Below, in pieces: positions 1,355 to 19,075 of a stretch of 32,000 nucleotides of DNA. The position numbers were made by a program, and so were the translations under genes. The stretch is taken from assembly GCA_032388755.1 (NCBI GenBank), contig CP135593.1, positions 476,530 to 508,529 of the forward strand. The letters run 5' to 3'. Within the stretch, counting starts at the first letter, position 1. The number at the start of each line of letters is the position of its first letter. Origin of the DNA: Neisseria sp. DTU_2020_1000833_1_SI_GRL_NUU_006 (GTDB lineage Bacteria > Pseudomonadota > Gammaproteobacteria > Burkholderiales > Neisseriaceae). The notes beneath the pieces were generated by a model. That model searched no databases, was not told where the DNA came from, and saw nothing but the letters and a program-made list of their open reading frames with translations.

Positions 1355-1452
1355 CCCAGCAACTCCTTATTTATTTGTATAAAGTGTGTAATAGTCGAAA
1401 CCCGATTAACTTTTCAGGAGGAAAGAGGTCGTCTGAAAAGTAAATTTATTGT

Positions 1453-1487
1453 AATAAAACCTGACTTAAAACGCCTTTTAAGCCAGG
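1453..1487 (-). terminator. Intrinsic terminator/attenuator hairpin downstream of hcp
   Basis: The minus-strand transcript reads CCUGGCUUAAAA-GGCG-UUUUAAGUCAGG (12-bp stem with one G.U) followed by UUUUAUU. It lies 27 nt after the hcp stop. Confidence 0.5.
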
Positions 1488-1513
1488 CTTCTGCAGTTAA
1501 ATGCGCATAGTGG

Positions 1514-1996
1514 TTATGCGGATTTGTTTTCTTTGATGTTGAAGGCCATTTGAACTTCAGCGCCTTTAGAACCTTTATCGGTTTGTTCCCAATATTGGTT
1601 TTTCACTTTGGCAGCTTGGAATGAGTAACGCATTTTCAGCTCATCGCTGTTTTGTACACCGATGAATTTCACGCCGGTTACCAAGACATCTTCCAAAGTG
1701 GTGCGCGAATATTCGATTTGTTCGCCACCGGCTTTGCATACGGAAATTTCTACTTTGCTCAAGTGTTGGCCGGTAGCACAGTTTTTCAGAATGGTCGGAG
1801 CGGCTTTATCAATAGCGGCAACTACGGTCAAGTCATTGAAATTGACTTTACCGGCACCACCGCCACCACCGCTGGTCATCGAACCGGGTTGCTCGGCACC
1901 CCAGTCAAAACTTTCGATGTTGGTCCAGTCTTTGTGGTTGGAATCTTTTGATTCTCCGTTAACACCTTCAACTTTCATGAACATATCAATAGCCAT
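1514..1996 (-). CDS. hcp: T6SS tube protein Hcp (TssD)
   Basis: 160 aa, MAIDMFMKVEGVNGESKDSNHKDWTNIESFDWG...: the canonical Hcp N-terminus, with typical size and context after tssBC. Confidence 0.95.
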   Translation of the reverse strand: MAIDMFMKVEGVNGESKDSNHKDWTNIESFDWGAEQPGSMTSGGGGGAGKVNFNDLTVVAAIDKAAPTILKNCATGQHLSKVEISVCKAGGEQIEYSRTTLEDVLVTGVKFIGVQNSDELKMRYSFQAAKVKNQYWEQTDKGSKGAEVQMAFNIKENKSA

Positions 1997-2084
1997 GTTT
2001 TTACTCTCCTTGTTAAAAGGTTAAAAAAATTAAGGGATTTAACAACAGGGCATGAACATGCCCACCTAAATAAACCAAACCCGA

Positions 2085-3584
2085 CTATTCCTGTTTAGCC
2101 GAAGGCAGTTTGGAAACCAAGCGCAATGAAACGGTAAGGCCTTCGAGTTGGTAGTGCGGGCGCAGGAAGAATTTGGAAGTGTAATATCCGGGATTGTCTT
2201 CAACTTCTTCCACAACCACTTCAGCAGCGGCCAACGGTTTACGGGCTTTTGTTTCTTGAGTGGAGTTAATCGGGTCTCCATCTACATAATTCATAATCCA
2301 TTCGTTTAACCAACGTTCCATGTCTTCACGCTCGCGGAACGAACCGACTTTGTCGCGTACGATACATTTCAGATAGTGCGCGAAACGACAGCACGCAAAC
2401 AGGTAAGGCAGACGTGCAGACAAACGGGCGTTGGCGGTAGCATCAGGATCATAATATTCAGACGGTTTATGCAGCGATTGAGCACCAATAAACGCGGCCA
2501 AGTCGGTATTTTTACGGTGAATCAACGGCATGAATCCCAATGCTGCCAATTCGGCCTCGCGGCGGTCACTGATGGCGATTTCGGTTGGACATTTCATATC
2601 CACGCCTCCGTCATCCGTCGGGAATGTGTGGCAGGGAAGGTTTTCAACGATACCGCCGGATTCCACGCCGCGGATTGAGGTACACCAACCATAGTATTTG
2701 AATGAACGGTTAATATTTACCGCCATTGCATAAGCCGCATTAGCCCATGTGTATTTGTTGTGATCCGCGCCTTCAGTTTCTTCTTCGAAGTCAAACTCAT
2801 CAACAGGGTTCGTTGTGGCACCGTAAGGCAGACGGGATAAGAAACGTGGCAGAGCCAAACCGATATAACGCGAATCTTCGGAATCACGCAGGCTGCGCCA
2901 TGGGGCATATTCGGCATTTTGGAAAATTTTGCTCAAATCACGAGGATTGGCCAACTCTTGCCAAGATTCCATCTGCATCAGTTTGGGGGATGCGCCGGCG
3001 ATGAACGGACAGTGTGCGGCGGCGGCAATTTTTTCAAGGCTATTGAGCATTTCCACATCGGGTGCAGAGTGATCAAAATAGTAGTCGCCAATCAAACAGC
3101 CGAAAGGCTCGCCACCAAACTGGCCGTATTCTTCTTCATAAATACGTTTGAATAGGGGGCTTTGATCCCAAGCGGTACCTTTGAAGCGTTTTAAGTTACG
3201 TGCAACTTCTTTTTTGGAGATGGGCAATACTTTGATTTTCAACAAAGTATCAGTTTCGGTATTGGTAACCAAATGATGCAGGCCGCGCCATTCGCCTTCC
3301 AGCTTTTGGAAATCTTCATGATGCAGAATCAAATTGATCTGTTCGGAAAGTTTTCTGTCGATCTCTGCAATAATCGCTTCGATGGTTTGATAAGTGTCGT
3401 CTGAAATAGTAATGGCGTTTTGCAAAGCTTGCTGTGCCAGTGTCGCTACGGCATTATTGACAGCACTTTTGGCTTCTTCAGTTTTGGGTTTGAATTCTTT
3501 TTGCAGCAGCTGTTCAAATTCATTTGCGGCAAACACACTTTTCGCGCCGCCGTCCCCTTGGATGTCTAATTGCTTTTCAATCAT
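2085..3584 (-). CDS. tssC: T6SS contractile sheath large subunit TssC (VipB)
   Basis: 499 aa with strong TssC-like sequence throughout (..LPISKKEVARNL..GEPFGCLIGDYYF..LPRFLSRLPYG..). Immediately downstream of tssB. Confidence 0.95.
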   Translation of the reverse strand: MIEKQLDIQGDGGAKSVFAANEFEQLLQKEFKPKTEEAKSAVNNAVATLAQQALQNAITISDDTYQTIEAIIAEIDRKLSEQINLILHHEDFQKLEGEWRGLHHLVTNTETDTLLKIKVLPISKKEVARNLKRFKGTAWDQSPLFKRIYEEEYGQFGGEPFGCLIGDYYFDHSAPDVEMLNSLEKIAAAAHCPFIAGASPKLMQMESWQELANPRDLSKIFQNAEYAPWRSLRDSEDSRYIGLALPRFLSRLPYGATTNPVDEFDFEEETEGADHNKYTWANAAYAMAVNINRSFKYYGWCTSIRGVESGGIVENLPCHTFPTDDGGVDMKCPTEIAISDRREAELAALGFMPLIHRKNTDLAAFIGAQSLHKPSEYYDPDATANARLSARLPYLFACCRFAHYLKCIVRDKVGSFREREDMERWLNEWIMNYVDGDPINSTQETKARKPLAAAEVVVEEVEDNPGYYTSKFFLRPHYQLEGLTVSLRLVSKLPSAKQE

Positions 3585-3617
3585 GATTCACGCTCACTTT
3601 ATTGATTTCATCTGAAA

Positions 3618-4142
3618 TTACTGCTCGTCTTTGGTTGTTGCTTTAGGTGCGGCTGCAAGGCTTTTCAGCAGCTCACTGTCTCCCAAGACTTTTCCGATTA
3701 ATTCTTCAGCACCGCTCTTACCATCCATATATGAAAGCAGGTTGGCAAGCTCTGTACGCGCTTGCAGGAGTTCGTTTAAAGGACCTACTTTTTTGGCTAT
3801 TGCTGCCGGAGAGAAATCATCCATGCTTTCCAATTCAAGCTCTACATTCAAGTTGCCTTCCCCGGTAAGCGTGTTTTTGACATTAAATGCGACACGCGGT
3901 TTGAGGGCTTTCATGCGTTCATCGAAATTATCTACGTCAATTTCCAAAAATTTACGTTCGGCTAATTCAGGTAGCGGCTCTACGGGTTTACCGACCAAAT
4001 CTGCCATCACACCCATAACGAATGGAAGCTCAATTTTTTTCTCAGAACCGTAAAGTTCTACATCGTACTCAATCTGTACGCGAGGCGCCCGGTTGCGGGC
4101 AATAAATTTTTGTCCGGATGATTTGTTTCGTGACATATTCAA
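3618..4142 (-). CDS. tssB: T6SS contractile sheath small subunit TssB (VipA)
   Basis: 174 aa; RAPRVQIEYDVELYGSEKKIELPFVMGVMADLVGK is the TssB signature region. Confidence 0.95.
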   Translation of the reverse strand: MNMSRNKSSGQKFIARNRAPRVQIEYDVELYGSEKKIELPFVMGVMADLVGKPVEPLPELAERKFLEIDVDNFDERMKALKPRVAFNVKNTLTGEGNLNVELELESMDDFSPAAIAKKVGPLNELLQARTELANLLSYMDGKSGAEELIGKVLGDSELLKSLAAAPKATTKDEQ

Positions 4143-4204
4143 TGACCTTTAAATGATAAAAGTTGTTTATTTAAACGAACTTTAAATATTGCGGATAGAC
4201 TAGC

Positions 4205-5272
4205 TTATTCGTTGGAAGTTCCCGTTTCTTCGTCCTGCTTCCCGATCAAAACTTCCAGATTGGCAATGCTTTCAGGACTGATATCTTTCATGATGTCGTA
4301 GAAGTTCATATTCATTTGCCGCTGTACCCTGCGGATAAATAGTGGGGCAGGGTGGCTGGGTTCCAGCGTTTCAAAGTAAATGCAGATTTTTTCCAAAGCC
4401 AAATCGACATCAGCACGATTTTTGATATTCAGACGACGCCAAGCATCCGCTTCTTGCAGGGTTGATGGCTCTTGGGCAACGGTCGAAACGGATGTTTCAA
4501 CAGGCTGTTCTGTTTGTTCTGCCTGTTGCAGCTGCGGGGTGCTTCCATCCTTGTAATTGACGGCTTTGTGAATGAGGGTAAGCGGCTTTTGAATCACCTC
4601 GAAATTAAGCGAATGTTCGTCTTGCAGCTGCGTTGAGAAAGTGTTTTGAATATCTTTCAGATAATCCAATGCTTGGATCAAGGCAATCAATTCCGGTTTG
4701 CCGGTGTCAGCGCTTACCCTGATGTCGAGCATCAATCGCTCTTTACCACCCGGATAGCTTTGCGGATCATTGCCTTGCAAGACAGAAACTGCTTCTTTGA
4801 CGGTAATAGGCTGTTGGGTCAGACCGTTTACTAATAACTTGGCTGAAAATACTTCTTTGGCGATGCCATCAAGTGTCGTGAATGCACTTAATGCATTGAT
4901 TCGATAAAACGGGTCGGGTTCGCCGTCCTCATCTTCGAGTTTGGGATATAGGGATTTCCAATATAAATCCACATTGGTTTTGATGGCCTCGCAGCCGGTG
5001 CAAAAGCCAACCAACCCGTGTTTTGCGGTAAGAGCCTGTGTGTAATAGGCTAAAACATGGAGGTCTTTTGATTCAGCCAGCAGTTGATTGCATAGCTTCT
5101 CTACTGTAACCCAATCAGGTTCTTCCGCAGGGATGATGGTGTCGCCATATTGTCTTTCCGGCTTTCCTTCCGCTGCACTTTGAAGTTCTAAAAAGCGGCT
5201 ATCGTATTCAATATTTACCCCTTCAGGGGTGTCGGCGGAAATTGGTTCAGCCCATAGGGGAAATGTACTCAT
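4205..5272 (-). CDS. tssA: T6SS protein TssA (ImpA N-terminal domain)
   Basis: 355 aa. ImpA_N-like N-terminus (EPISADTPEGVNIEYDSRFLELQSAAEGKPE...EPDWVTVEKLCNQLLAESKDLHVLAYYTQAL). Located upstream of tssB. Confidence 0.85.
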   Translation of the reverse strand: MSTFPLWAEPISADTPEGVNIEYDSRFLELQSAAEGKPERQYGDTIIPAEEPDWVTVEKLCNQLLAESKDLHVLAYYTQALTAKHGLVGFCTGCEAIKTNVDLYWKSLYPKLEDEDGEPDPFYRINALSAFTTLDGIAKEVFSAKLLVNGLTQQPITVKEAVSVLQGNDPQSYPGGKERLMLDIRVSADTGKPELIALIQALDYLKDIQNTFSTQLQDEHSLNFEVIQKPLTLIHKAVNYKDGSTPQLQQAEQTEQPVETSVSTVAQEPSTLQEADAWRRLNIKNRADVDLALEKICIYFETLEPSHPAPLFIRRVQRQMNMNFYDIMKDISPESIANLEVLIGKQDEETGTSNE

Positions 5273-5276
5273 TTAC

Positions 5277-5837
5277 TTATAATCCAAATATTTTATTGAA
5301 CAGGGAACATGTCGGCTCCCCGTCTCTTTCTATATGGTTACCACTTTCGCATTCCATCCAAAAGCTACCGATGTTATCTGTTTTGGATAAAAAAATGAGG
5401 AAAGATTCAGATAATGGATTGCTAGGTTTGTGAATTGTATCTAAGCAATCTTTTAAAACACATTTACCATTAATCAATGTTTGGTTAAAAAAATCTATAT
5501 TTTTGTAAAAAAAATTAATAGATTTTAACTGTTCGGAAGGAGTATAAAGCTTTTGAAATAATACAAAGGGATATTGCCGACCTGTTTGGTCCGAACTAAG
5601 GGCTGTTATACCAGTATAGGTAATGTTGTCAGGCAGTTTAATACAAAACAGCCAAATACGAGATGCGAAAAACGCCTTTCGGATAAATGGAATTAACTTA
5701 TCTTGGTTGGTGCAACGATCAAACCATCCATCCCAAAAATTTTTATCGTTAGCTTGGAGATTTTCAGAAACAATAAAATCACGAGATTGATTTAGCTTTC
5801 CGAAAAAGTAGGTTTCTATTTGCCGCATAAATAACAA
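5277..5837 (-). CDS. tagF: T6SS-associated protein TagF (DUF2094-like)
   Basis: 186 aa. Motifs FFGKLNQSRDF, WDGWF, RIWLF and SSDQTGRQYPFVLF parallel TagF (GKLPxxGDF, WDxW, IWRF, D.VGR.FPL). First gene of the minus-strand operon. Confidence 0.7.
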   Translation of the reverse strand: MLFMRQIETYFFGKLNQSRDFIVSENLQANDKNFWDGWFDRCTNQDKLIPFIRKAFFASRIWLFCIKLPDNITYTGITALSSDQTGRQYPFVLFQKLYTPSEQLKSINFFYKNIDFFNQTLINGKCVLKDCLDTIHKPSNPLSESFLIFLSKTDNIGSFWMECESGNHIERDGEPTCSLFNKIFGL

Positions 5838-6202
5838 TCACATGATGTAAAATTAACAAAAGATAAAGTTACTTAAGGTATTGGTTATGCTGCCTCAAAC
5901 ATATCCAATATGCCTGCTGTATATATACTTTACCATAATTTTGGTTTATGTATTAATATATTTTTTATTCGCTAAAATAATAAGTAAGGTAAATATTTTA
6001 TGTTATTAGTATATTTACGGAACATTTATTGTAAATTTAGTATCTTAAGATACAATGTATTTACAGTTTGTTATTTGTTATAATTTTGTTGTAATGCTAT
6101 TTCGAAACAGTCAGAATTATTTTGACTTAGTGTCTTAAGTCTCTAAAATATCTTAGTTTTTAATTTCAAAAGCAATAGAATCTCGACGGAGGGAGTAAGT
6201 GC
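5838..6202. promoter_or_regulatory. AT-rich divergent control region between the T6SS operon and rhs
   Basis: 365 bp without ORFs and visibly very AT-rich. Contains a perfect 14-bp palindrome GTATCTTAAGATAC (6040-6053), an inverted repeat GACTTA-N6-TAAGTC (6124-6141) and a third CTTAAG at ~5873. Confidence 0.6.
6122..6149 (+). promoter_or_regulatory. Candidate sigma70 promoter for rhs
   Basis: TTGACT (6122-6127), 16-nt spacer, TAAAAT (6144-6149). It sits ~55 nt upstream of the rhs ATG, which has a GGAGGGA Shine-Dalgarno. The spacer overlaps the GACTTA/TAAGTC inverted repeat. Confidence 0.35.
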
Positions 6203-9200
6203 ATGGCCTCTTTCGGTAACACTTTTGGTGTTCTCATTCCTAAACCAGCCGCACCAGCCATGGTGTCTCAAGGCTCTGCCAATCCACCTGAGCCGCTGAC
6301 CAATGCAGCCGGGCCGGTGGATGTGATAGAAATGGTTGCCGATGTTGCTTCCACTGCCCTTTCCATAGTTGCGCCTGATTCTGCTGCAGCCGATGCAGTT
6401 GATGCCATATCTGATTTGGTTTCTCTTGCGTCTATGATACCCGGTCAACCGGGCCCCAAACCCCCTTCCCGTAAAATGGTCAGCGGTTTTAGCGGCGGCA
6501 TGGGTATGGGCTTCGATGGTGGGATAGTTACCTCAGGTCATGGCCACTGTATTCCTTGTAAGGTAGCTGCTGCCACAAATGTTGGTAACCCTGTAAATGC
6601 AGTGCTCGGTATCAAAGTCCTATTTGACGATACCGAGACCGACTTTGCTTTCGATTCCCCACTTCCCCTCGTTTGGCAGCGCAGCTACTATTCCGACCAA
6701 ATAGGCAACGGCTGGTTGGGGCAGGGTTGGTCGCTGCCGTTCTCCATGCGTCTTGTCCGTACTGCCGACGGATTCCTTTATATTGATGAACAGGGCAGGG
6801 AAATTCCGTTGCCGGATATCAGCGACGAAGCGGACGAGCCTTATTCCGCAGCCGACGACGATGAAGACGATTTATATGAAGAAGAGGCTGCCCCAAGACC
6901 TGCTTCCGCCGAAGAAGATCCCTACGGTCTGGATGACGCCTATTTCGATCCTTACGAACAAATCTTCTTTTCACAGATTTCAGACGACCTCTACCAAATC
7001 GCCTCCCCCGACGGCGGCGCACGGCTACTGTTTGCCGAAGTCGATTCCGGCTGCGGCATTTACCAACTGGTCGCACAACTCGACCGCAACGGCCGCCATA
7101 TCCGCCTCTGCTACGACGACAACGGACTGCCGCACAGCATCTACGACGGCAGCGGCCGACACTTCCGACCCGTATTCTCCTCCATCCGTCTGAACGACAA
7201 CGATCCCGACTTCGACCCGGCCGGAGAACGGGACGTCTTCGTTTCCGAAGACGAGCGTTTCTACGACAACCGCCTCACTTCCGTCATCTTCAATGGTAAG
7301 GAACTGGTGCGCTACGACTACGACGGCTACGGCGATTTGACCGCCGTTTACGGACGCGACGGCAAAAAACTGCGCGGTTTCGCCTACCGCAACCACATCA
7401 TGGTCGAACACAGCCAGCCCGACGGACTGGTGTCCCGCTACGAATACGACCGTTATGACACCGACGGCAAAGTGCTCAAGAGCAGCAACAACCTCGGCGA
7501 AGAATGGACGTTCGACTACCGTAAAGACCATACCGTCGTTACCGACGCATTGGGACGGACGGAAGTGTATGGTTTCGACGAAAACCGCGAACTCGTCTAC
7601 CGCATCGACGCCGACGGACAGCGCAGCGACAGCGAACGCGACAGCTACGGCCGCATCACCGTAGAACGCGACCCGCTCGGACGCGAAACCCGCTATCTCT
7701 ACGATACCGAAGGCAACGTCATCGCCATCACCGCGCCGGACGGCAGCAGCACCCAAATCGACTACCACGAAACCCTCAACCTGCCGGTTGCCGTCAACGA
7801 TCCCGCAGGCAGGATTACCGCCTACACCTACGACGGACGCGGCAACCTCGTCAGCATCACCGACCCCGCCGGTTACACCACCAGCTACGGCTACAACGCC
7901 CAATGGCTGCCCGAAACCATTACCGACGCCTTAGGCAAAACCCGACACCTACACTACGACACCCTCGACCAACTCGTCTGCTTTACCGACTGTACCGGCG
8001 AAACCACCCGTTTCGGTTACACCGAATACGGCGATCTCGAAACCGTTACCGATGCACTGGGCCATATCACCCGCCACCATTACGACGCAGCGGGCAACCC
8101 CGTCCGTACCGACTATCCCGACGGCAGTCACGAAACCTTCGAATACGACCGCCTCAACCGACTGACCGCCTACATCGACGGACTCGGCGCCAAAACCGCC
8201 TACGAACTCGCAGTGGACGGACTGCCGCTCAAACGCACCAACGCGTTGGGCCATACCTTCGCCTACGCCTACGACAAAGCCCGCCGTTTGACCGTCCTCA
8301 CCAATGAAAACGGCGAAACCTACCGTCTCGATTACGACCCGACCGACAACTTGATCCAAGAAACCGGCTGGGACGGCAAAATCACCGCCTACGGCTACGA
8401 TGCCGCCGGACAACTGGTTCAACAGACCGAATACGGCCAAAGTCATAATGAAGGCCGTCTGAAAGACCGTCCCGAGACTTGGCACATCCACCGATTCAAA
8501 CGCAACATTCTCGGCCAACTGATCCAAAAACAAAGCCGCAAAGTGTCCCACAAAAACGGACAAAGCAAAGACGAAGGCATCAGCCGCACCCGTTTCGACT
8601 ACGACCCCATTACCGGCAACCTGACCAAAGCCCGCAACCGACACAGCAGCGTCGAACTTGCCTACGACGAACTCGACCGCCTCATCGGCGAAACCACCGT
8701 CCACAACGGCCAAAGTGCCACCGTAGGCTACCGATACGACCCGTTGGGCAACCGCATCCGCACCATCCTGCCCGACGGCCGCCATATCGATTACCTGTAC
8801 TACGGCAGCGGACACCTGCACCAAATCAGCCTCGACGGCGAAGTCATAACCGACATCGAACGCGACAAACTGCACCGCGAAATCCAAAGGACGCAGGGCA
8901 GCATCAGCAGCCTGTACGACTACGACCCCATGGGTCGTCTGAAAAGCCAGCGTACCGTCCGGAGCGGCACACAAACACCCCGCGGCAAACAAAACCCGTT
9001 GGCCGGCGGCGCCGTCAACCGCCGCTACGCCTACGACAAAGCCGGCAACCTGATTCAAAGCGCCGACCAAAGAAGCGGCGTCCTCCATTACGTTTACGAC
9101 AAAATCGGACGCATTCAAGAAGCCCGCAACAGCCAAACCGGCCGCAGCGAAACCTTCGCCTTCGACCCCGCCCACAACATCCTCGACATCCCAACATCTA

Positions 9201-10441
9201 CTCCCTCTCCCGTGGGAGAGGGCAAAGCGACCGCTCCGATTTCAGACGACCCCAAAACTCAAGGTCGTCTGAAATCACCTGCCAACCCTAACCCTGTCAG
9301 CGGCAACCGCCTCAAAGAATACAACGGCATCGAATACACCTACGACGCATTGGGCAACCTGATCTACCGCCAGCTGCCCGACGGTGAAAACCAATATTAC
9401 CAATACGATTTAGAAAACCAACTCGTCCGCGCCGAAATCAAAAAGCCCGCCGGCAATACCGAGATCTGGACATACGCCTACGACCCGTTCGGCAGACGCC
9501 TCTCCAAAGAACGCCAAGACAAACTTGCCTGGACGAGTACCGATCCGAAACGCACCCACTTCGTCTGGGACGGAACACGATTACTTCAGGAGTACACCTA
9601 CAAAGGCAGCTACACCTATATCTACACCGACCAAGACAGCTACGAACCGCTGGCGCAAGTCTTTGACAACGCCAAAGACGGCAAACAATACCTCGCCTAT
9701 TTCCACAACGACCAAATCGGCATACCGCGCGAGATGACCGACATCCACGGCAATCTCTTATGGTACGGCGAATACACCGCTTGGGGTCGTCTGAAAAAGG
9801 ATGAACGGGTTTACAAGAATGCGCATCAGCCGTTCAGATTGCAAAACCAATACTTCGATGAAGAGACCGGACTGCATTACAACCTGATGCGGTATTACGA
9901 GCCAGAGGCTGGGCGTTTCATTAACCAAGACCCGATTGGGTTGTTTGGTGGAGATAATTTATATTCATTTGGTAATCAAGTATTGGATTTTATCGATCCA
10001 CTTGGTTTAAAAATTTATGGCCATAGAAAAAACGGAACATTTAGGAAAAAACCTGGACCGAAATCCAAGAAGAAAAGCGCGGGTAAAGGGGAGTGTATCC
10101 AAAATAAAAAAGATGGTGATGCTCGCGAAGCCTTACATAAAAAAGACTTAGATGCCCAATATGGAGCTGACCGTATATTGAGTCAGAAACACTTGAGAAA
10201 TAAAAAGGGCGAAATTGTTAGAGATCCCGTAACAGGTGAGTCTCGTAAGCTTGATTTTGTTATAAAAGGAGCTGGTAAAAATGGTGGTGGGCATGCTCAG
10301 GAAGTAACTAGTTTGACTGCGTCTAAGACGGCACAACGTGCTAAAGAATTAAGGATTAGAAATTCTGGGGGTATTTATGTTAGAGATGGGACATCCCTAA
10401 TTAAAGTAGATGAATTATCTGAAATTATCCGATTGAAATAG
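6203..10441 (+). CDS. rhs: Rhs/YD-repeat T6SS effector with C-terminal polymorphic toxin
   Basis: 1412 aa. DUF6531-like segment (GNPVNAVLGIKVLFDDTETDF..PLVWQRSYYS). Many YD repeats (YxYDxxGN/RL). Rhs core end GLHYNLMRYYEPEAGRFINQDPIGLFGG...FIDPLGL, followed by an abrupt switch to an AT-rich tail. Divergent from the T6SS operon. Confidence 0.93.
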   Translation: MASFGNTFGVLIPKPAAPAMVSQGSANPPEPLTNAAGPVDVIEMVADVASTALSIVAPDSAAADAVDAISDLVSLASMIPGQPGPKPPSRKMVSGFSGGMGMGFDGGIVTSGHGHCIPCKVAAATNVGNPVNAVLGIKVLFDDTETDFAFDSPLPLVWQRSYYSDQIGNGWLGQGWSLPFSMRLVRTADGFLYIDEQGREIPLPDISDEADEPYSAADDDEDDLYEEEAAPRPASAEEDPYGLDDAYFDPYEQIFFSQISDDLYQIASPDGGARLLFAEVDSGCGIYQLVAQLDRNGRHIRLCYDDNGLPHSIYDGSGRHFRPVFSSIRLNDNDPDFDPAGERDVFVSEDERFYDNRLTSVIFNGKELVRYDYDGYGDLTAVYGRDGKKLRGFAYRNHIMVEHSQPDGLVSRYEYDRYDTDGKVLKSSNNLGEEWTFDYRKDHTVVTDALGRTEVYGFDENRELVYRIDADGQRSDSERDSYGRITVERDPLGRETRYLYDTEGNVIAITAPDGSSTQIDYHETLNLPVAVNDPAGRITAYTYDGRGNLVSITDPAGYTTSYGYNAQWLPETITDALGKTRHLHYDTLDQLVCFTDCTGETTRFGYTEYGDLETVTDALGHITRHHYDAAGNPVRTDYPDGSHETFEYDRLNRLTAYIDGLGAKTAYELAVDGLPLKRTNALGHTFAYAYDKARRLTVLTNENGETYRLDYDPTDNLIQETGWDGKITAYGYDAAGQLVQQTEYGQSHNEGRLKDRPETWHIHRFKRNILGQLIQKQSRKVSHKNGQSKDEGISRTRFDYDPITGNLTKARNRHSSVELAYDELDRLIGETTVHNGQSATVGYRYDPLGNRIRTILPDGRHIDYLYYGSGHLHQISLDGEVITDIERDKLHREIQRTQGSISSLYDYDPMGRLKSQRTVRSGTQTPRGKQNPLAGGAVNRRYAYDKAGNLIQSADQRSGVLHYVYDKIGRIQEARNSQTGRSETFAFDPAHNILDIPTSTPSPVGEGKATAPISDDPKTQGRLKSPANPNPVSGNRLKEYNGIEYTYDALGNLIYRQLPDGENQYYQYDLENQLVRAEIKKPAGNTEIWTYAYDPFGRRLSKERQDKLAWTSTDPKRTHFVWDGTRLLQEYTYKGSYTYIYTDQDSYEPLAQVFDNAKDGKQYLAYFHNDQIGIPREMTDIHGNLLWYGEYTAWGRLKKDERVYKNAHQPFRLQNQYFDEETGLHYNLMRYYEPEAGRFINQDPIGLFGGDNLYSFGNQVLDFIDPLGLKIYGHRKNGTFRKKPGPKSKKKSAGKGECIQNKKDGDAREALHKKDLDAQYGADRILSQKHLRNKKGEIVRDPVTGESRKLDFVIKGAGKNGGGHAQEVTSLTASKTAQRAKELRIRNSGGIYVRDGTSLIKVDELSEIIRLK
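10010..10441 (+). other. Rhs C-terminal toxin domain (family unassigned; possibly nuclease-like)
   Basis: The ~143 aa after DPLGL are lysine-rich and AT-rich. The segment ..GESRKLDFVIKGAGKNGGGHAQEVTS..K is loosely reminiscent of D...E.K restriction-endonuclease-fold toxins. A paralogue lies in orphan cassette 4. Confidence 0.4.
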
Positions 10442-10452
10442 AAAGGAAACTT

Positions 10453-10785
10453 ATGGAAGCAAATGATATAGTTTTATTTGATTTTGATGCATTTATTTCA
10501 GGAAGTAAAGATGTTGATTACCAAGAAGCAATAAAAAAAATGTCTTTGTCTTTGATGAAATTTTTAATAGAAAATGATTTGTTGGTAAATATAAATCCTT
10601 TTAATCAAGATGGATCAGTAAAAAATGATTTAATTATTAAGAAATCAAATTTAACGGATGAAGGTTTTCAATTATTCGTTAAACCAGTAAATAACTGGTG
10701 GAATGCTTTGGATAGGGGAACTCCTCCCGAGAAAGTTACTATTTTGGAGAATGGGTTGAAAAAAATTCGTGCTGTGAAAAAGTAA
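10453..10785 (+). CDS. Putative cognate immunity protein for the main Rhs toxin
   Basis: 110 aa, AT-rich, starting 12 nt after the rhs stop with an AAAGGA RBS. A paralogue follows the paralogous toxin at 19076-19399, with an identical C-terminal 40+ aa. Confidence 0.7.
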   Translation: MEANDIVLFDFDAFISGSKDVDYQEAIKKMSLSLMKFLIENDLLVNINPFNQDGSVKNDLIIKKSNLTDEGFQLFVKPVNNWWNALDRGTPPEKVTILENGLKKIRAVKK

Positions 10786-10791
10786 TTTTCT

Positions 10792-10976
10792 AGCAAGCCG
10801 TAGCCCGCACAAAACCTTCAGTCCTGACGTAGGGTGTGTGCGGTACACACGCACGCGGTTTCTGTTTTTCAGACGATCTCACTATCTTCTTTGAGGTCGT
10901 CTGAATCATTTGTTCTTTAACAATCTCATTAGCAGTTGACATAGAGGTCGTCTGAAAACGAACTTTCAGGCGACCT
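10792..10976 (+). repeat. Composite inter-cassette repeat, copy A
   Basis: AGCAAGCCGTAGCCCGCACAAAACCTTCAGTCCTGACGTAGGGTGTGTGCGG..., then DUS inverted pair 1 (10868-10905), CATTTGTTCTTTAACAATCTCATTA, then DUS inverted pair 2 (10944-10976). The same architecture recurs at 11621, 14426 and 17281, with partial copies at 18248 and 19409. Confidence 0.85.
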
Positions 10977-11194
10977 TCATCTTATTTCGTCAAAAATGTG
11001 CGCACGAAAGGGTTTTCATATCATACTGCTGCCTTTGAAATAGAATAAAAGGCGTATATAAAATCATGTAGGAAGGATGATTTCGGAAACCAAACGGCAG
11101 GGATTAATTTCTAGGAAACAGGCAGCAAGATTGCGTAGAATTATTGGTAAATGTTCCTAATTTTATTAATGTAAATATATTGGAAAGGGTTAAT

Positions 11195-11611
11195 ATGACC
11201 TACTTGATTAAGCCATATGAATCAATTGGTGATTTTGTATTTGGTACTTCTATTGAGGAAATACAAGAAAAATATGGAAAACCAGCAAGAATGGTTGAAG
11301 ATAATATTATGAATAATAAGGTGGAATATAGGAATGCTTGTGAGTTAGTTTATGAAAACGATAAATTGGTTTATGGATATTGCTTAAAAGATTCTAATCC
11401 CATATTAGGAGATATTGATATATTTAAAAATTCAATCGAAGACCTTAAAGCTATCGATTCAGAATTTATCGAAGGAAAAAAATATATTCTTTTTAAGAAT
11501 CTCGGGATTTGTATAGGAGGTATGACAGGAAAAAAAATTCCTGAAGGCAAGTTATTAATTGCATTTGATAAAAATCACTTTGATTTTTTTGAATGTTTTA
11601 TCGAGGTGTAA
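11195..11611 (+). CDS. Putative orphan immunity protein (no adjacent toxin)
   Basis: The likely start is MTYLIKPYESIGDF.. with a GAAAGGG RBS; the track ORF starts earlier, at 11144. It is small, AT-rich, embedded in the toxin/immunity array and followed by repeat copy B. Upstream is a 27-codon ORF (11077-11160) that could be a toxin 3' remnant. Confidence 0.45.
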   Translation: MTYLIKPYESIGDFVFGTSIEEIQEKYGKPARMVEDNIMNNKVEYRNACELVYENDKLVYGYCLKDSNPILGDIDIFKNSIEDLKAIDSEFIEGKKYILFKNLGICIGGMTGKKIPEGKLLIAFDKNHFDFFECFIEV

Positions 11612-11620
11612 TCGAACTGT

Positions 11621-11833
11621 AGTCAATGAAACTTCCAATTTCGATGTAGAGTAAGCCGCAGCCTACACAAAACCTTCAGTCCTGACGTAGGGGGTGTGCA
11701 GTACGCACGCACGCGGTTTCTGTTCAGACGACCTCAAAACCTTCTTTGAGGTCGTCTGAGCCATTTGTTCTTTAACAATCTCATTAACAGTAACATAGGG
11801 GTTGTCTGAAAACCGACTTTCAGACGACCTCTG
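11621..11833 (+). repeat. Composite inter-cassette repeat, copy B
   Basis: Same modules as copy A, with an extra degenerate ~39-bp subrepeat at its 5' end. Its terminal DUS (11818-11830) is also the first base block homologous to main rhs 6978-6990. Confidence 0.85.
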
Positions 11834-14214
11834 CCAAATCGCCTCCCCCGACGGCGGCGCACCGCCTCACCTCCGTCACCTTCAACGGTAAGGAACTGGT
11901 GCGCTACGACTACGACGGCTACGGCGATTTGACCGCCGTTTACGGACGCGACGGCAAAAAACTGCGCGGTTTCGCCTACCGCAACCACATTATGGTGGAA
12001 CACAGCCAGCCCGACGGACTGGTGTCCCGCTACGAATACGACCATTACGACACCGACGGCAAAGTGCTTAAAAGCAGCAACAACCTCGGCGAAGAATGGA
12101 CGTTCGACTACGATAAAGCCCGCCGTCTGACCGTCCTCACCAACGAAAACGGCGAAACCTACCGTCTCGATTACGACCCGACCGACAACTTGATCCAAGA
12201 AACCGGCTGGGACGGCAAAATCACCGCCTACGGCTACGATGCCGCCGGACAACTGGTTCAACAGACCGAATACGGCCAAAGTCATAATGAAGGCCGTCTG
12301 AAAGACCGTCCCGAGACTTGGCACATCCACCGATTCAAACGCAACATTCTCGGCCAACTGATCCAAAAACAAAGCCGCAAAGTGTCCCACAAAAACGGAC
12401 AAAGCAAAGACGAAGGCATCAGCCGCACCCGTTTCGACTACGACCCCATTACCGGCAACCTGACCAAAGCCCGCAACCGACACAGCAGCGTCGAACTTGC
12501 CTACGACGAACTCGACCGCCTCATCGGCGAAACCACCGTCCACAACGGCCAAAGTGCCACCGTAGGCTACCGATACGACCCGTTGGGCAACCGCATCCGC
12601 ACCATCCTGCCCGACGGCCGCCATATCGATTAATCGAACGCGACAAACTGCACCGCGAAATCCAAAGGACGCAGGGCAGCATCAGCAGCCTGTACGACTA
12701 CGACCCCATGGGCCGTCTGAAAAGCCAGCGTACCGTTTGGAGCGGCACACAAACGCATCACGGCAAACAAAACCCGCTGGCCGGCGGCGCCGTCAACCGC
12801 CGCTACGCCTACGACAAAGCCGGCAACCTGATTCAAAGCGCCGACCAAAGAAGCGGCGTCCTCCATTACGTCTACGACAAAATCGGACGGATTCAGGAAG
12901 CCCTCAACAGCCAAAGCGGCCGCAGCGAAACCTTCGCCTTCGACCCCGCCCACAACATCCTCGACATTCCAACATCTACTCCCTCTCCCGTGGGAGAGGG
13001 GCTGGGGAGAGGGCAAAACGACCGCCCCGATTTCAGACGACCTCCAAACTCAAGGTCGTCTGAAATCACCTGCCAACCCCAACCTTACCGGCGGCAACCG
13101 CCTCAAAGAATACAACGGTATCGAATACACCTACGACGCACTGGGCAACCTGATCTACCGCCAGCTGCCCAATGGTGAAAACCAATATTACCAATACGAT
13201 TTAGAAAACCAACTCGTCCGCGCCGAAATCAAAAAGCCCTCCGGCAACACCGAGATTTGGACATACGCCTACGACCCGTTCGGCAGAAGGCTTTCCAAAG
13301 AACGCCAAGACAAACTCGCCTGGACGAGTACCGACCCCAAACGCACCCACTTCGTCTGGGACGGAACGCGATTACTTCAGGAGTACACCTATAAAGGCAG
13401 CTACACCTATATCTATACCGACCAAGACAGCTACGAACCGTTGGCGCAAATCTTTGACAACGCCAAAGACGGCAAACAATACCTCAGCTATTTCCATACT
13501 GACCAAATCGGCATACCGCGCGAGATGACCGACATCCACGGCAATCTCTTATGGTACGGCGAATATACCGCCTGGGGTCGTCTGAAAAAGGGTGAGCGTG
13601 TTTATCAGAACGCACATCAGCCGTTTAGATTGCAAAACCAATACTTCGATGAAGAGACGGGGCTGCACTATAATTTCTTCCGTTACTATGAGCCAGACAC
13701 TGGTAGATTCATCAATCAGGACCCGATTGGGTTGTTGGGTGGGGATAATCTTTATGAATTTTCACCCAATATAAATAGTTGGTTTGATCCTTTAGGATTA
13801 AGTCCTAGAAATTTGCCAGGAATTGCATCAGGAAGTGGTAATTCAATTGGAAAAAAATGGTTGAAGGGTACACATGGAAATGCTGGTGTATTTCCTAAAT
13901 CTGTAGCAGATAAATTACGTGGTAAATCTTTTGATAGTTTTGATGATTTCCGAGCTGCCTTTTGGAAAGAAGTAGCAAAAGATCCAAAATTAGTTGAGGG
14001 TTTTTCGGAGACTAATAAGAAAAGGATGGCTCAGGGAAAAGCACCTAAAGCAGCCAAATGTCAACATGATGGTAAAGTAAGCTCGTATCAAATACATCAT
14101 AAAACTCCCATTAATCGTGGTGGTGGTGTTTATGATATGGATAATATGCTGATTGTTACACCAAAATTCCATAAAGAGATACTAGAACCGAAATACCATT
14201 TTGGAAGAGGATAG
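11818..14214 (+). pseudogene. Orphan rhs cassette 1: mosaic, multiply frameshifted rhs 3' fragment ending in a colicin-E-type HNH DNase toxin
   Basis: Homology blocks to main rhs: 6978-7021, then 7270-7520, then ~8273-8790 (apparently identical). A 61-nt deletion then creates RHID-TAA at 12631. A +1 change in the GGGGAGAGGG repeat (~12990-13010) shifts frame again. The open tail is ...WFDPLGL + ..SSYQIHHKTPINRGGGVYDMDNMLIVTPKFHKEI, the H-N-H motif as in colicin E9/pyocin DNases. No start codon or RBS at the 5' end. Confidence 0.85.
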
Positions 14215-14218
14215 CATT

Positions 14219-14437
14219 ATGTTAGATAGATTATATTTAATCAAACTGATTGATCAGTTAAGAAATTTTGAAGGTTCAGAAGAGGATGAAGATGTATTTC
14301 TTGAAAAATTAGAAAATTTGGTCACAGATCCAAATATATCAGATTATATATATTGGACAAACATGAGCTCTGAGGAAATAGCTGATAAAGTACTTAGTTA
14401 CAAACCTATTATCCTCCCTGATTTAAGCAAGCCGTAG
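14219..14437 (+). CDS. Colicin/pyocin DNase immunity protein (Im-type)
   Basis: 72 aa from an ATG 4 nt after the toxin stop. EEDEDVFLEKLENLVTDPNISDYIYWTN..SSEEIADKVL parallels Im7/Im9 (..EHPxGSDLIYYP..SPEGIV..). The last codons (SKP-stop) are supplied by the start of repeat copy C. Confidence 0.8.
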   Translation: MLDRLYLIKLIDQLRNFEGSEEDEDVFLEKLENLVTDPNISDYIYWTNMSSEEIADKVLSYKPIILPDLSKP

Positions 14438-14788
14438 CCTGCACAAAACCTTCAGTCCCGACGTAGGGTGTATGTGGAACGCACGCGGTTTCTGTTTTTC
14501 AGACGACCTCACTATCTTCTTTGAGGTCGTCTGAACCATTTGTTCTTTAACAATCTCGTTTCCGAAGCAAGCCGTAACCCGCATGAAACCTTCAGTCCCG
14601 ACGTAGCAAGCAGTAGCCCGCATGAAACCTCCAATCCCGATGTAGGGTGTGTGCGGAAAGCACGCACGTGGTTTTTGCTTTTCAGACGACCTCAATACTT
14701 TCTTTAAGGTCGTCTGAACCATTTGCTCTTTAACAATCTCATTAACAGTAACATAGAGGTCGTCTGAAAACCGACTTTCAGACGACCT
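14426..14788 (+). repeat. Composite inter-cassette repeat, copy C (tandemly duplicated)
   Basis: Two consecutive units (14426-~14540 and ~14553-14788). The second unit contains two ~39-bp subrepeats (GCAAGCCGTAACCCGCATGAAACCTTCAGTCCCGACGTAG / CAAGCAGTAGCCCGCATGAAACCTCCAATCCCGATGTAG). It ends in the DUS that begins cassette 2. Confidence 0.85.
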
Positions 14789-14796
14789 CTGCCAAA

Positions 14797-16821
14797 TTGC
14801 CTTCCCCGACGGCGGCACACGGCTGCTGTTTGCCGAAGTTGATTTTGGCTACAGCGACCGGCTGGGACGGCAAAATCACCGCCTACGGCTACGATGCCGC
14901 CGGACAACTGGTTCAACAGACCGAATACGGTCAAAGCACCGATAAAGACCGTCTGAAAGACCGTCCCGAGACGTGGTACATCCACCACTTCAAACGCAAC
15001 ATCCTCGGCCAACTGATCGAAAAACAAAGCCGCAAAGTCTCCGGCCGCAACGGACAAAGCAAAGACGAAGGTATCAGCCGCACCCGTTTCGACTACGACC
15101 CCATTACCGGCAACCTGACCAAAGCCCGAAACCACCACAGCAGCGTCGAACTCGCCTACGACGAACTCGACCGCCTCATCGGCGAAACCACCGTCCACAA
15201 CGGCCAAAGCGCCACCGTAGGCTACCGATACGACCCGTTGGGCAACCGCATCCGCACCATCCTGCCCGACGGCCGCCATATCGATTACCTGTACTACGGC
15301 AGCGGACACCTGCACCAAATCAGCCTCGACGGCGAAGTCATAACCGACATCGAACGCGACAAACTGCACCGAGAAATCCAAAGGACGCAGGGCAGCATCA
15401 GCAGCCTGTACGACTACGACCCCATGGGTCGTCTGAAAAGCCAGCGTACCGTCCGGAGCGGCACACAAACGCTTCACGGCAAACAAAACCCGCTGGCCGG
15501 CGGCGCCGTCAACCGCCGCTACGCCTACGACAAAGCCGGCAACCTGATTCAAAGCGCCGACCAAAGAAGCGGCGTCCTTAATTACGTTTACGACAAAATC
15601 GGACGCATTCAGGAAGCCCGCAACAGCCAAACCGGCCGCAGCGAAACCTTCGCCTTCGACCCCGCCCACAACATCCTCGACATCCCGACATCTACTCCCT
15701 CTCCCGTGGGAGAGGGTCGGGGAGAGGGCAAAACGACCGCCCCGATTTCAGACGACCTCCAAACTCAAGGTCGTCTGAAATCACCTGCCAACCCCAACCT
15801 TATCAGCGGAAACCGCCTCAAAGAATACAACGGCATCGAATACACCTACGACGCCTTGGGCAACCTGATCTACCGCCAGCTGCCTAATGGCGAAAACCAA
15901 TATTACCAATACGATTTAGAAAACCAGCTCGTCCGCGCCGAAATCAAAAAGCCCGCCGGCAATACTGAGATTTGGACATACGCCTACGACCCGTTCGGAC
16001 GACGCCTCTCCAAAGAGCGCCAAGACAAACTCGTCTGGACGAGTACCGATCCGAAACGCACCCACTTCGTTTGGGACGGCAGCCGCCTATTGCAGGAGTA
16101 CACCTACAAAGGCAGCTATACCTATATCTATACCGACCAAGACAGCTACGAACCCTTAGCCCAAGTCTTTCACAACAACCAAGACGAAGAACAATACCTC
16201 GCCTATTTCCACAACGACCAAATCGGCATTCCAAAAGAAATGACCGATATCCATGGTAATCTCTTATGGTACGGCGAATACACCGCCTGGGGTCGTCTGA
16301 AAAAGGACGGGCGGGTTTACAAGGATGCGCATCAGCCGTTCAGACTTCAAAACCAGTATTATGATTCTGAAACAGGACTCCACTATAACTATTTCCGCTA
16401 TTACGATTCAGACACAGGACGTTTTGTAAGCCAAGACGTGATAGGTTTGGTAGGAGGAGAAAATTTCTATCAATTTTCCCCCAATACACAAAGTTGGATT
16501 GATCCTTTAGGACTCAAAGAACTTTATTATCTTGTTGCAAGAAAAGATGGTTTTTACCCTGTAATGGAATGGGGTAAACGTAAGCCTGTGGGTAAGATAT
16601 GGTTGAAAAAAGGAGATATTTGGAAAATTGGGGAAACAAAAAATATTGTAAAAGGTGTTCAGCGTCGGTATTCTCAAAAATGGTTAGATAGAAATAATTT
16701 AAAATATATAAGAGTCATGAAGGGACCTAAGAAGGCTATGCAACGTTGGGAAAGGTTGAAAATTATTAAATATATTAAGAGAAGGGGTAAATTACCAGCG
16801 GGAAATAAATGTAAGCATTAG
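14797..16821 (+). CDS. Orphan rhs cassette 2: uninterrupted 674-codon rhs 3' fragment with a novel ~100-aa C-terminal toxin
   Basis: Rhs homology starts at 14776 (DUS plus a leader matching main 6978-~7055, out of frame), then joins main ~8364 onward. The frame is open through the core end ..WIDPLGL, followed by KELYYLVARKDGFYPVMEWGKRKPVGKIWLKKGDIWKIGET..RRYSQ..WERLKIIKYIKRRGKLPAGNKCKH. The track start is only a TTG without an RBS, so independent expression is doubtful. Confidence 0.7.
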   Translation: MPSPTAAHGCCLPKLILATATGWDGKITAYGYDAAGQLVQQTEYGQSTDKDRLKDRPETWYIHHFKRNILGQLIEKQSRKVSGRNGQSKDEGISRTRFDYDPITGNLTKARNHHSSVELAYDELDRLIGETTVHNGQSATVGYRYDPLGNRIRTILPDGRHIDYLYYGSGHLHQISLDGEVITDIERDKLHREIQRTQGSISSLYDYDPMGRLKSQRTVRSGTQTLHGKQNPLAGGAVNRRYAYDKAGNLIQSADQRSGVLNYVYDKIGRIQEARNSQTGRSETFAFDPAHNILDIPTSTPSPVGEGRGEGKTTAPISDDLQTQGRLKSPANPNLISGNRLKEYNGIEYTYDALGNLIYRQLPNGENQYYQYDLENQLVRAEIKKPAGNTEIWTYAYDPFGRRLSKERQDKLVWTSTDPKRTHFVWDGSRLLQEYTYKGSYTYIYTDQDSYEPLAQVFHNNQDEEQYLAYFHNDQIGIPKEMTDIHGNLLWYGEYTAWGRLKKDGRVYKDAHQPFRLQNQYYDSETGLHYNYFRYYDSDTGRFVSQDVIGLVGGENFYQFSPNTQSWIDPLGLKELYYLVARKDGFYPVMEWGKRKPVGKIWLKKGDIWKIGETKNIVKGVQRRYSQKWLDRNNLKYIRVMKGPKKAMQRWERLKIIKYIKRRGKLPAGNKCKH

Positions 16822-16847
16822 TTTTATTTTGTTTTTAAGATAAGGAG

Positions 16848-17282: not shown

Positions 17283-17464
17283 CAAGCCGTAGCCCGGACA
17301 AAACCTTCAGTCCTGACGTAGGGTGTGTGCGGTAAGCACGCACGCGGTTTCTGTTTTTCAGACGACCTCACTATCTTCTTTGAGGTCGTCTGAAACATTT
17401 GTTCTTTAACAATCTCATTAGCAGTTGACATAGAGGTCGTCTGAAAACCAACTTTCAGACGGCC
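17281..17464 (+). repeat. Composite inter-cassette repeat, copy D
   Basis: Near-identical to copy A. It begins at the immunity stop codon (TAGCAAGCCGTAGCCC...). Confidence 0.85.
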
Positions 17465-17477
17465 TTTGTTGCACCGT

Positions 17478-17794: not shown

Positions 17795-17808
17795 TAAAAG
17801 GAAAGAAT

Positions 17809-18222: not shown

Positions 18223-18247
18223 GTTAGTTTGAAGCCAACCAAAGTTT

Positions 18248-18280: not shown

Positions 18281-18302
18281 TAATATGTGGTAGTTTAATT
18301 AC

Positions 18303-19066: not shown

Positions 19067-19075
19067 GAGATTATC

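Follow-up and report, generated by a model that had tools for sequence, protein, structure and literature searches.

DNA uptake sequences (DUS) located in the coding regions of Neisseria meningitidis are read mostly as RL[N/K], PSE, QTA and SDG (PMC2817400 Table 2), and the dominant coding frames of the mucDUS dialect are RLX and SDD (bioRxiv 10.1101/2025.10.24.684340). DUS are enriched in conversion fragments, and they occupy permissive sites yet are conserved (PMC2397512). For the meningococcal tpsC cassettes, it was proposed in 2013 that the donor DNA for tail exchange is acquired by transformation (PMC3848433). In commensal Neisseria, type VI secretion systems (T6SS) of the 'T6SS-B' type flanked by rhs are a known layout, and rhs lying upstream of tssA without PAAR has been described (PMC10210955). 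We analysed a stretch of 32,000 nucleotides (hereafter the window) from Neisseria sp. DTU_2020_1000833_1_SI_GRL_NUU_006 (contig CP135593.1, positions 476,530 to 508,529), in which a single rhs gene carries six in-frame DUS.

The explanation that we favour, and which we hold to be probable, is that these sites are authentic DUS of the host dialect, set at permissive positions of the Rhs protein and kept at the DNA level by uptake-biased conversion, and that DUS act in addition as short-homology crossover points.

DUS in the rhs coding sequence

The rhs gene (6203-10441, plus strand) encodes a full-length Rhs effector of 1412 amino acids with a DUF6531 domain, YD repeats and an RHS core ending in ...DPIGL (Pfam PF05593, PF20148 and PF03527). 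All six DUS announced by the original prediction exist, three as exact 12-mers (S1, S2 and S5) and three matching at 11 of 12 positions (S3, S4 and S6), and the 10-mer core is intact in every one of them, including the imperfect ones. The host dialect to which they belong is AG-mucDUS (AGGTCGTCTGAA). S1 (6979-6990, minus strand) is an exact AG-mucDUS, read as ISDDL, and is the recurrent starting point of orphan cassettes. S2 (8452-8463, plus strand) is an exact AG-DUS (AGGCCGTCTGAA), read as GRLK within a lineage-variable loop. S3 (8932-8943, plus strand; GGGTCGTCTGAA) is read as GRLK on an ancestral YD-repeat GRL motif, S4 (9241-9252, minus strand) as ISDDP, and S5 (9262-9273, plus strand), again an exact AG-mucDUS, as GRLK. 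S6 (9784-9795, plus strand), identical in sequence to S3, is read as (W)GRLK and lies ~175 nucleotides (nt) upstream of the boundary between core and toxin. The twelfth match is missing from S3 and S6 because the preceding Met and Trp codons end in G. S4 and S5 form an inverted pair within the coding sequence (9241-9273), read as ISDDPKTQGRLK and located in an insertion or variable loop of ~30 amino acids.

The canonical 10-mer core, GCCGTCTGAA, has its sole copy in rhs at S2, and the other five sites carry GTCGTCTGAA. A reading of the sites as canonical DUS was rejected on the ground of this single core, since they make sense only as AG-mucDUS. In the related N. mucosa and N. sicca loci GTCGTCTGAA predominates as well; AG-mucDUS is the dialect of the N. 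mucosa, N. sicca and N. macacae group, and the N. sicca genome holds 3770 DUS copies (PMC3630211). At S2 the gene has the canonical GCC form and nearly all orthologues have GTC; this dialect change amounts to one synonymous GGT-to-GGC switch, which turns one functional dialect into another. AG-mucDUS is also the repeat that prevails in the genome of this strain: the whole window contains 52 DUS cores in 32 kb, and the canonical 10-mer, expected 0.06 times, occurs five times.

Codon reading bore out the proposed ISDDL at S1 and GRLK in four places. GRL occurs four times in the protein, each time as a GRLK encoded by GG[T/C] CGT CTG AAA, and both SDD tripeptides are encoded by TCA GAC GAC. Judged from these codons, the rhs sites use the two standard frames of coding DUS, RLK forward and SDD in reverse. 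The in-frame GRLK and SDD singled out at the start are present, but as ordinary preferred frames (PMC2817400; bioRxiv 10.1101/2025.10.24.684340).

Maintenance of the motif at the DNA level

All rhs orthologues found in mucDUS hosts retain the same six sites, and S6 is intact in 42 of the 47 copies on Neisseria contigs. Identity per nucleotide is 0.97-1.00 in the DUS cores and 0.90-0.96 in the flanks. The synonymous-site check suggested together with the six sites was run on the Neisseria copies and came out in favour of conservation: third-codon positions differed in 6.5% of the cells in the cores (3.5% when S2 is left aside) versus 12.1% in the flanks, taken as 75 nt on each side, and most of the differences in the cores are the T/C dialect switch. 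These cells are phylogenetically non-independent, so that P values attached to this comparison are overstated, a point to be counted against our explanation. When synonymous codons were permuted within rhs, 0.23 DUS resulted on average and the highest count in 5000 trials was 3, compared with the 6 observed.

S1 is read as SDD (TTCAGACGACC) in mucDUS hosts and as SDG (TTCAGACGGCC) in N. oralis and N. wadsworthii, a nonsynonymous D-to-G change in step with the dialect. The orthologues with AG-DUS in these two species have GGC instead of GGT at S3 and S6, and in the main gene of N. wadsworthii GRLR is found at S3 with the non-DUS codons GGA AGA TTA, and WGKLQ at S6. In the S2 loop the mucosa group has a forward mucDUS (GRLK) and N. 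wadsworthii a reverse canonical DUS (LSDG); the loop of N. oralis is shorter and free of DUS. Among Rhs homologues of the main protein in the PDB (7q97, 8qja and 8uy4), S6 corresponds to WGNT, LGKQ or WGAV, with WG alone conserved, and S3 to the ancestral YD-repeat motif GR[LV][KR] (GRLR or GRVK); the segments holding S2 and S4/S5 are gapped or absent loops. On this comparative evidence, the DNA motif is conserved beyond its surroundings and beyond any need for the peptide. At the rhs locus, uptake signal and protein co-evolve, orthologous sites keeping their DUS while the amino acid, the codon or the strand follows the dialect.

These observations bear on the simplest alternative, namely that YD repeats require GRL and SDD peptides and that common codons happen to spell DUS. 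The YD-repeat consensus does contain GRL, and S3 lies on such a motif, but the repeats here mostly have GNL or GNV and GRL occurs in only 1 of 16 YDxxG motifs. Given the codon usage of the window, a GRLK would be spelt as a DUS with a probability of 0.076 per site and of ~3e-5 for four out of four. This alternative also fails to account for the permutation maximum of 3 in 5000, for the dialect tracking at S1, for a GRL written with non-DUS codons in N. wadsworthii and for the presence of a DUS on either strand of the S2 loop. We rejected it on these grounds as improbable in the extreme.

A natural control was sought in the decay of S6 outside Neisseria, where 13 of 29 copies are intact versus 42 of 47 within the genus (P = 4e-5). 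The difference vanishes after stratification by flank divergence; it is confounded and was not used.

The rhs locus of N. wadsworthii 9715 contains 16 canonical DUS cores and 4 cores of wadDUS, which is the dialect proper to this species (PMC3630211). In its main rhs gene, DUS are found solely in the reverse SDG frame and at partly different positions (amino acids 274, 601 and 761). This composition suggests that the locus was imported from an AG-DUS species.

Junctions of the orphan cassettes in the window

Self-comparison and direct reading of the window revealed that each immunity gene is followed by a conserved intergenic module of ~115 nt. Its elements are, in order, a small GC hairpin, hairpin 1 (a minus-strand and then a plus-strand DUS), the spacer CATTTGTTCTTTAACAATCTCATTAGCAGTTGACATAG and hairpin 2 (plus-strand DUS, AAAACCGAC, minus-strand DUS). 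All copies lie on the plus strand. Copy 1 (10860-10975), flagged as terminator-like, is followed by no rhs sequence. In copy 2 (11715-11830), orphan cassette 1 is opened by the right arm of hairpin 2 (11818-11830), an S1-equivalent DUS, and in copy 3 (14681-14788, complete) the same arm (14776-14788) opens orphan cassette 2. Direct reading also located an extra hairpin 1 near copy 3 (14498-14535). Copy 4 (17357-17465) is complete, has the AG-DUS dialect in the right arm of its hairpin 2 and continues into non-rhs sequence. Partial modules were found as well: hairpin 2 alone, with its plus- and minus-strand DUS (18249-18279), 55 nt upstream of cassette 4, and a hairpin 1 (19409-19446) that precedes cassette 5a.

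Orphan cassette 1 (11818-14214, plus strand), delimited by blastn and Pfam, has a mosaic rhs core interrupted by internal deletions and frame breaks, and ends with a colicin/pyocin DNase toxin (13441-14214, PF21431); it retains the equivalents of S2 to S6 at 12293, 12712, 13032, 13055 and 13577. Orphan cassette 2 (14776-16821, plus strand), delimited likewise, consists of a 75-nt S1 stub joined to sequence matching 8363-9970 of the main gene, followed by a Tox-URI2 toxin, with an open reading frame at 14797-16821 and DUS at 15428, 15747, 15770 and 16292.

Thirteen nucleotides, TTTCAGACGACCT, are shared by rhs (6978-6990) and the right arm of hairpin 2, and the boundary falls there at both 11818 and 14776. 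Modules with this 13-mer and no rhs behind it occur at 10963 (degenerate), 17453-17465 and 18267-18279; in orphans 1 and 2 the same 13 nt continue into rhs from 6991 onwards. Both parental forms and the recombinant are thus present in the window. Since the 13-nt DUS is at once the end of module homology and the start of rhs homology, it is what a crossover inside these 13 nt would leave behind. For the exact match at S1, DUS-to-DUS short-homology recombination with the intergenic module is a better explanation than uptake itself.

That both orphans start exactly at S1, as first proposed, stands, though as one independent junction. They have the same upstream flank and differ only in later internal deletions (7025/7269 and others in orphan 1, 7052/8363 in orphan 2); as they share the junction, they go back to one S1-start ancestor that was later duplicated. 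A long S1-start orphan of this kind survives in one related locus (L005). The internal deletion joints at 7025/7269, 7529/8266, 8793/8855 and 7052/8363 are none of them at a DUS.

The remaining cassettes are less simple. Cassette 4 (18303-19406, plus strand) comprises a degenerate YD fragment (18303-18335) followed by a block with 82% identity to 9708-10792 of the main rhs region, with an S6 equivalent at 18412. This homology covers the core end, the toxin and the immunity gene, and its start is not at a DUS. A degenerate fragment from 18303 had indeed been described, but the homology starts at 18334-18340 (corresponding to 9708-9714), 72-78 nt before S6 and not ~45 nt before it. Cassette 4 (18334-19406) is a diverged paralogue of the core end, toxin and immunity of the main gene itself, and hence a second copy of the expressed pair; homologues of the main immunity gene and of the cassette 4 immunity gene (imm4) co-occur in other arrays. 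Cassette 5a (19475-19730, plus strand) matches 9345-9600 and starts 72 nt from any DUS. Cassette 5b (19732-20457, plus strand) matches 9228-9953, with equivalents of S4, S5 and S6 at 19745, 19768 and 20290. It had been thought to begin at the pair of DUS at 9241 and 9262; its actual start, 19732, corresponds to 9228, 13 nt before S4, and the joint of 5a with 5b (9600 to 9228) is an rhs-to-rhs duplication joint. The 5a/5b region (19409-20579) is followed by an insertion sequence (IS).

Every homology arm in the window was said to contain an uptake signal, and each of them keeps at least S6. The toxin/immunity units (0.9-1.07 kb) are free of DUS and bracketed by S6 upstream and by the DUS of hairpin 1 downstream. 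This variable DNA without DUS, ~3.9 kb in all, is unremarkable against the coding background (~1.7 expected) and notable only against the density of the whole window.

Junctions in related loci

The rhs core was compared by blastn with 68 related loci, and junctions were collapsed into classes by coordinate and flanking sequence. Eight of the 68 classes of 5' junctions fall no more than 3 nt from a DUS, where 1.95 would be expected (binomial P = 7e-4), in counts made without phylogenetic control. S1 accounts for five of these eight, with five distinct left flanks meeting at exactly 6978; in eight loci the flank is the right arm of hairpin 2, and in L062 and probably L006 it is the left arm of hairpin 1. 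An orphan of N. elongata (L029) starts exactly at S2, and another locus (L067) shows a clean in-frame deletion of 522 nt between the direct-repeat DUS S5 and S6. Finally, the orphan of L038 starts exactly at S5, where it abuts a possible IS end (...TGTTGCACTTGAAATCCGAATCC, L038:9900-10022). Other joints of the family were found at microhomologies of 5-7 nt (TCTAC, TGAAAAC).

It might be argued that one ancestral orphan began at S1 by accident and was copied widely, DUS having no mechanistic part in the junctions. Orphans 1 and 2 and the eight loci do share one hairpin-2/S1 junction. When junctions are collapsed by coordinate only, 4 of 54 of the 5' junctions are at DUS (P = 0.07), the 3' homology ends in the 68 related loci are not enriched at DUS (3 of 64), and the L038 junction may stem from insertion of an IS and not from DUS recombination; all three weigh against a role of DUS, and the last raises the possibility that some mobile elements insert next to DUS. 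A single accident does not readily account, on the other hand, for five left flanks at exactly 6978 that include both minus-strand DUS arms of the module, nor for the clean S5-to-S6 deletion or the start at S2; moreover, with other joints at 5-7 nt, a DUS of 12-13 nt is expected as a preferred substrate. Historical accident is accordingly doubtful in our view, but deserves to be kept in mind.

Breakpoints had been expected to track DUS positions in other strains. This is the case for S1, which recurs with five left flanks, but 60 of the 68 classes of 5' junctions and 61 of the 64 classes of 3' ends are off DUS. Short-homology recombination is general in the rhs family, and DUS are its longest and most abundant substrate; S1 is probably a hotspot, though a non-exclusive one. 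The exact DUS-to-DUS junctions suggest a second and under-appreciated role of DUS as dispersed short-homology substrates for rearrangement. A search of the literature for DUS acting as substrates of microhomology events or deletions returned no relevant paper.

DUS hairpins within and between genes

The stems of the intergenic module have predicted folding energies of -19 to -26 kcal/mol (-19.4 and -26.1 for copy 3). Copies of hairpin 1 have stems of -19 to -24 kcal/mol followed by T-rich tails such as CATTTGTTCTTT, as rho-independent terminators do. The module is probably the 3' homology arm and the terminator of each cassette. It is conserved across strains, even in arrays located outside Neisseria.

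The inverted S4/S5 pair also forms a stable hairpin within the gene, with a stem of 14 bp (-22.8 kcal/mol, z = -6.9), and inverted pairs of DUS are known from other loci as terminators or attenuators (PMC2397512, PMC10210955). An intragenic attenuator or an mRNA structure controlling Rhs expression could be envisaged in place of uptake signals. This is highly unlikely: the stem lacks a following T-run and went unflagged in the terminator scan, an alternative allele lacking the pair exists in five related loci (L018, L020, L024, L030 and L036), and the four single sites would be left without explanation. S4/S5 may instead be a captured terminator or a junction scar, to judge by its form. The order of its arms is the same as in the intergenic hairpin 1.

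A model for the DUS-rich rhs gene

In the model that we favour, positions permissive at the protein level would have been occupied by DUS: S3 on an ancestral GRL motif, S6 directly after the conserved WG, and S2, S4 and S5 in lineage-variable loops or insertions. The conserved rhs core would be repeatedly exchanged by transformation-mediated gene conversion, and uptake-biased recombination, a molecular drive with or without selection, would enrich and preserve DUS and lead to the approximately 3-fold density of the gene. S6 and the intergenic module would bracket each DUS-free toxin/immunity unit with uptake signals, so any tail-recombining fragment would also be an efficient uptake substrate. 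Apart from uptake, the sequences show that the DUS, the longest sequence common to module and gene (12-13 nt), has served as a short-homology crossover: recombination of the minus-strand DUS arm of the module with S1 produced the 5' end of orphans 1 and 2, and related events elsewhere involved a different module arm at S1, or S5 and S6 in the in-frame deletion. On analogy with other uptake-tagged loci, it is plausible that DUS promote toxin-tail swapping by transformation.

Several points weigh against this model and have to be set beside it. The original prediction called the density of DUS in rhs unusual. At 1.42 per kb, it does exceed the 0.435 per kb of other coding sequences by 3.3-fold (Poisson P = 0.012), the background being 103 kb of non-rhs open reading frames of at least 200 amino acids from mucDUS-host loci, but the excess is modest: 2 of the 27 frames of at least 1.5 kb are as dense, and rhs roughly equals the whole window, which takes in the intergenic hairpins. 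DUS were reported by Treangen et al. to be under-represented in diversifying and accessory regions (PMC2397512). Because DUS avoid accessory DNA, a DUS-rich toxin locus is not predicted by the general drive model, unless the conserved core behaves as core genome. The DUS-rich rhs gene cuts against this published finding, and in this lies the chief interest of the original observation. Further, the type strains of N. mucosa and N. sicca were not transformable in the laboratory in the one study that tried, and mucDUS-dependent transformation within the mucDUS group had not been demonstrated (PMC3630211), although AG-mucDUS functions in N. meningitidis at reduced efficiency (PMC3630211). Orphan displacement can also proceed inside one chromosome, without any DNA uptake.

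A stronger claim would be that the density and placement of DUS in rhs were selected for the uptake and swapping of cassettes, DUS marking the ends of the exchange units. S6 is found in every arm and remains intact in 42 of 47 Neisseria copies, the DUS-free units are bracketed by S6 and hairpin 1 with a spacing of 0.9-1.07 kb, and the density is ~3.3 times the coding background; there is, besides, the precedent of the tpsC cassettes, with experimental recombination (PMC3848433), and a similar suggestion for vgrG effector clusters (PMC10210955). Yet DUS occur about once per 0.6-1 kb genome-wide, so that almost any 2-kb fragment has one, neither frames nor sites depart from the generic permissive ones (PMC2817400), most breakpoints lie off DUS, fragment ends are not defined by uptake, and the type strains of the mucDUS group were not transformable (PMC3630211). 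Such design is indistinguishable from passive drive on present data, and we regard it as possible but on the whole unlikely. It is plausible that a benefit from cassette exchange is a consequence of molecular drive; the evidence does not show adaptation.

Genomic context of the locus

The rhs gene runs divergently from T6SS core genes identified by Pfam on the minus strand (539-5837): impE (539-1354), hcp (1514-1996), tssC (2085-3584), tssB (3618-4142), tssA (4205-5272) and tagF (5277-5837). No PAAR or VgrG was detected in the window by Pfam; the N-terminus of Rhs has DUF6531 alone, and the T6SS core cluster adjoins it. This layout matches the 'T6SS-B flanked by rhs' arrangement of PMC10210955.

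The YD repeats of the main protein (PF05593) form nine stretches (E = 1.6e-68), followed by the RHS core (PF03527), whose end, '...FINQDPIGLFGG' at amino acids 1239-1250, is a motif of the PxxxxDPxGL type. From ~9971 onwards the gene encodes a C-terminal toxin for which no family was recognised. Core homology among the cassettes stops at ~9953-9970 and alternative toxins lie beyond, a polymorphic-toxin layout. The next open reading frame (10453-10785, plus strand), free of DUS, encodes a putative cognate immunity protein of 110 amino acids; it has no match in Pfam, and the assignment comes from its position and from homologues in other arrays. Downstream of it lies a series of 5'-truncated rhs fragments with other toxins, then IS and phage genes. 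No Rfam family reached the gathering threshold in 6000-21000. Close rhs orthologues, with 93-97% identity, are found in N. mucosa, N. sicca and related oral Neisseria.

Arrays outside Neisseria and atypical contigs

On contigs assigned to oral bacteria other than Neisseria, we observed arrays of 20 kb or more that contain the DUS hairpin module of the window, rhs fragments of 80-100% nucleotide identity and full-length homologues of its immunity genes. The contigs are assigned to Streptococcus (L058, L068, L062 and L059), Veillonella (L054 and L067) and a Haemophilus metagenome-assembled genome (MAG; L057); examples are L062:10001-21200 and L068:2500-15200. The species named for them are S. 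infantis (including the 1.88-Mb scaffold of ATCC 700779), S. australis, another Streptococcus species, V. parvula and, in the case of the MAG, H. haemolyticus. Veillonella, for instance, has a homologue of imm4 at 88%, and S. australis one of orf11144 at 97%. The streptococcal arrays lie between zwf and ftsY, and the array flanks are DUS-free housekeeping genes (zwf, ftsY, Cof hydrolases, hprK).

Chimeric assembly was considered and set aside, given the absence of N gaps, the contiguous housekeeping flanks and the several independent assemblies; the arrays are probably real. They probably reflect cross-phylum horizontal transfer of Neisseria toxin/immunity cassettes, chimeric assembly being less likely on the sequences at hand, and might perhaps work as acquired immunity islands against Neisseria T6SS attack. 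If they are genuine, DUS are a provenance mark that reveals the movement of toxin/immunity cassettes across phyla in the oral microbiome. A bolder and tentative proposition, which we would sooner doubt than adopt, is that DUS, available in either orientation from the hairpin module and from the sites within the gene, are the physical joints by which toxin arrays are assembled, crossovers truncating, deleting and possibly capturing cassettes, and that such arrays spread beyond Neisseria, where they may be immunity islands.

The same rhs, at 95-98% identity, was observed on contigs labelled N. meningitidis 1273_NMEN (L017, L031, L043, L045, L050 and L055), N. lactamica 919_NLAC (L032, L034, L037, L039 and L044) and N. 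lactamica NS19 (L035, L047 and L048). These contigs are mostly short, L034 and L035 being cut from contigs of 13-24 kb, and those in which DUS cores were counted carry mucDUS only and no AT-DUS. Their content suggests either that the mucosa/sicca group contaminated these assemblies or that it was the source of a recent transfer.

Comparison with known systems

With the coding DUS described so far (Davidsen 2004; Findlay & Redfield 2009, PMC2817400; Treangen 2008, PMC2397512), the rhs sites share the preferred frames, RL[K/N] forward and SDG or SDD in reverse. They also share the location at permissive, less conserved protein positions and a motif more conserved than its flanks (PMC2817400, PMC2397512). 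They differ in that six of them are gathered in one accessory, diversifying toxin gene, where the published trend is depletion, and in that nonsynonymous dialect tracking (D to G) is documented here at one orthologous site.

Orphan rhs-CT arrays are known from enterobacterial Rhs and from Snodgrassella alvi (PMC5727410; Poole 2011, PMC3150448). There, as in the window, a full-length rhs with its immunity gene is followed by 5'-truncated orphans that offer alternative toxin/immunity pairs, and recombination proceeds via the conserved core. Those arrays have no uptake sequences, whereas here DUS tag both arms and spacers, and truncation recurs at one of them; uptake sequences are not mentioned in the papers on Rhs of N. 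cinerea and S. alvi. The vgrG clusters of N. subflava (Calder et al. 2023, PMC10210955) are likewise part of a commensal T6SS, with 12-mer and 11-mer DUS of two dialects in coding and non-coding positions and with DUS inverted repeats as terminators, and DUS were suggested to aid the sharing of competitive genes. That account was qualitative and contained no analysis of an rhs core, of frame, of synonymous conservation or of junctions.

The junctions resemble those of microhomology-mediated or homology-facilitated illegitimate recombination, with 12-13 nt present in both parental contexts and other joints at 5-7 nt. In contrast to that general case, the repeat here is the uptake signal of the genome itself, of which the terminator hairpins provide many copies.

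A further parallel lies in the meningococcal tpsC cassettes (PMC3848433), a polymorphic-toxin locus with silent downstream cassettes and with uptake sequences at or near the 5' ends of cassettes. The toxins are TpsA proteins of a type V secretion system there and T6SS Rhs effectors here; in the window, DUS also lie in frame within the homology arms of the expressed gene, and the cassette start is the DUS itself, common to the arm of an intergenic hairpin. The idea of uptake-tagged silent toxin cassettes is extended from tpsC to T6SS Rhs effectors. We see the DUS of rhs as an extension of known DUS biology, that is of coding DUS and of DUS-tagged toxin cassettes, with a modestly novel twist, rather than as a new kind of system.

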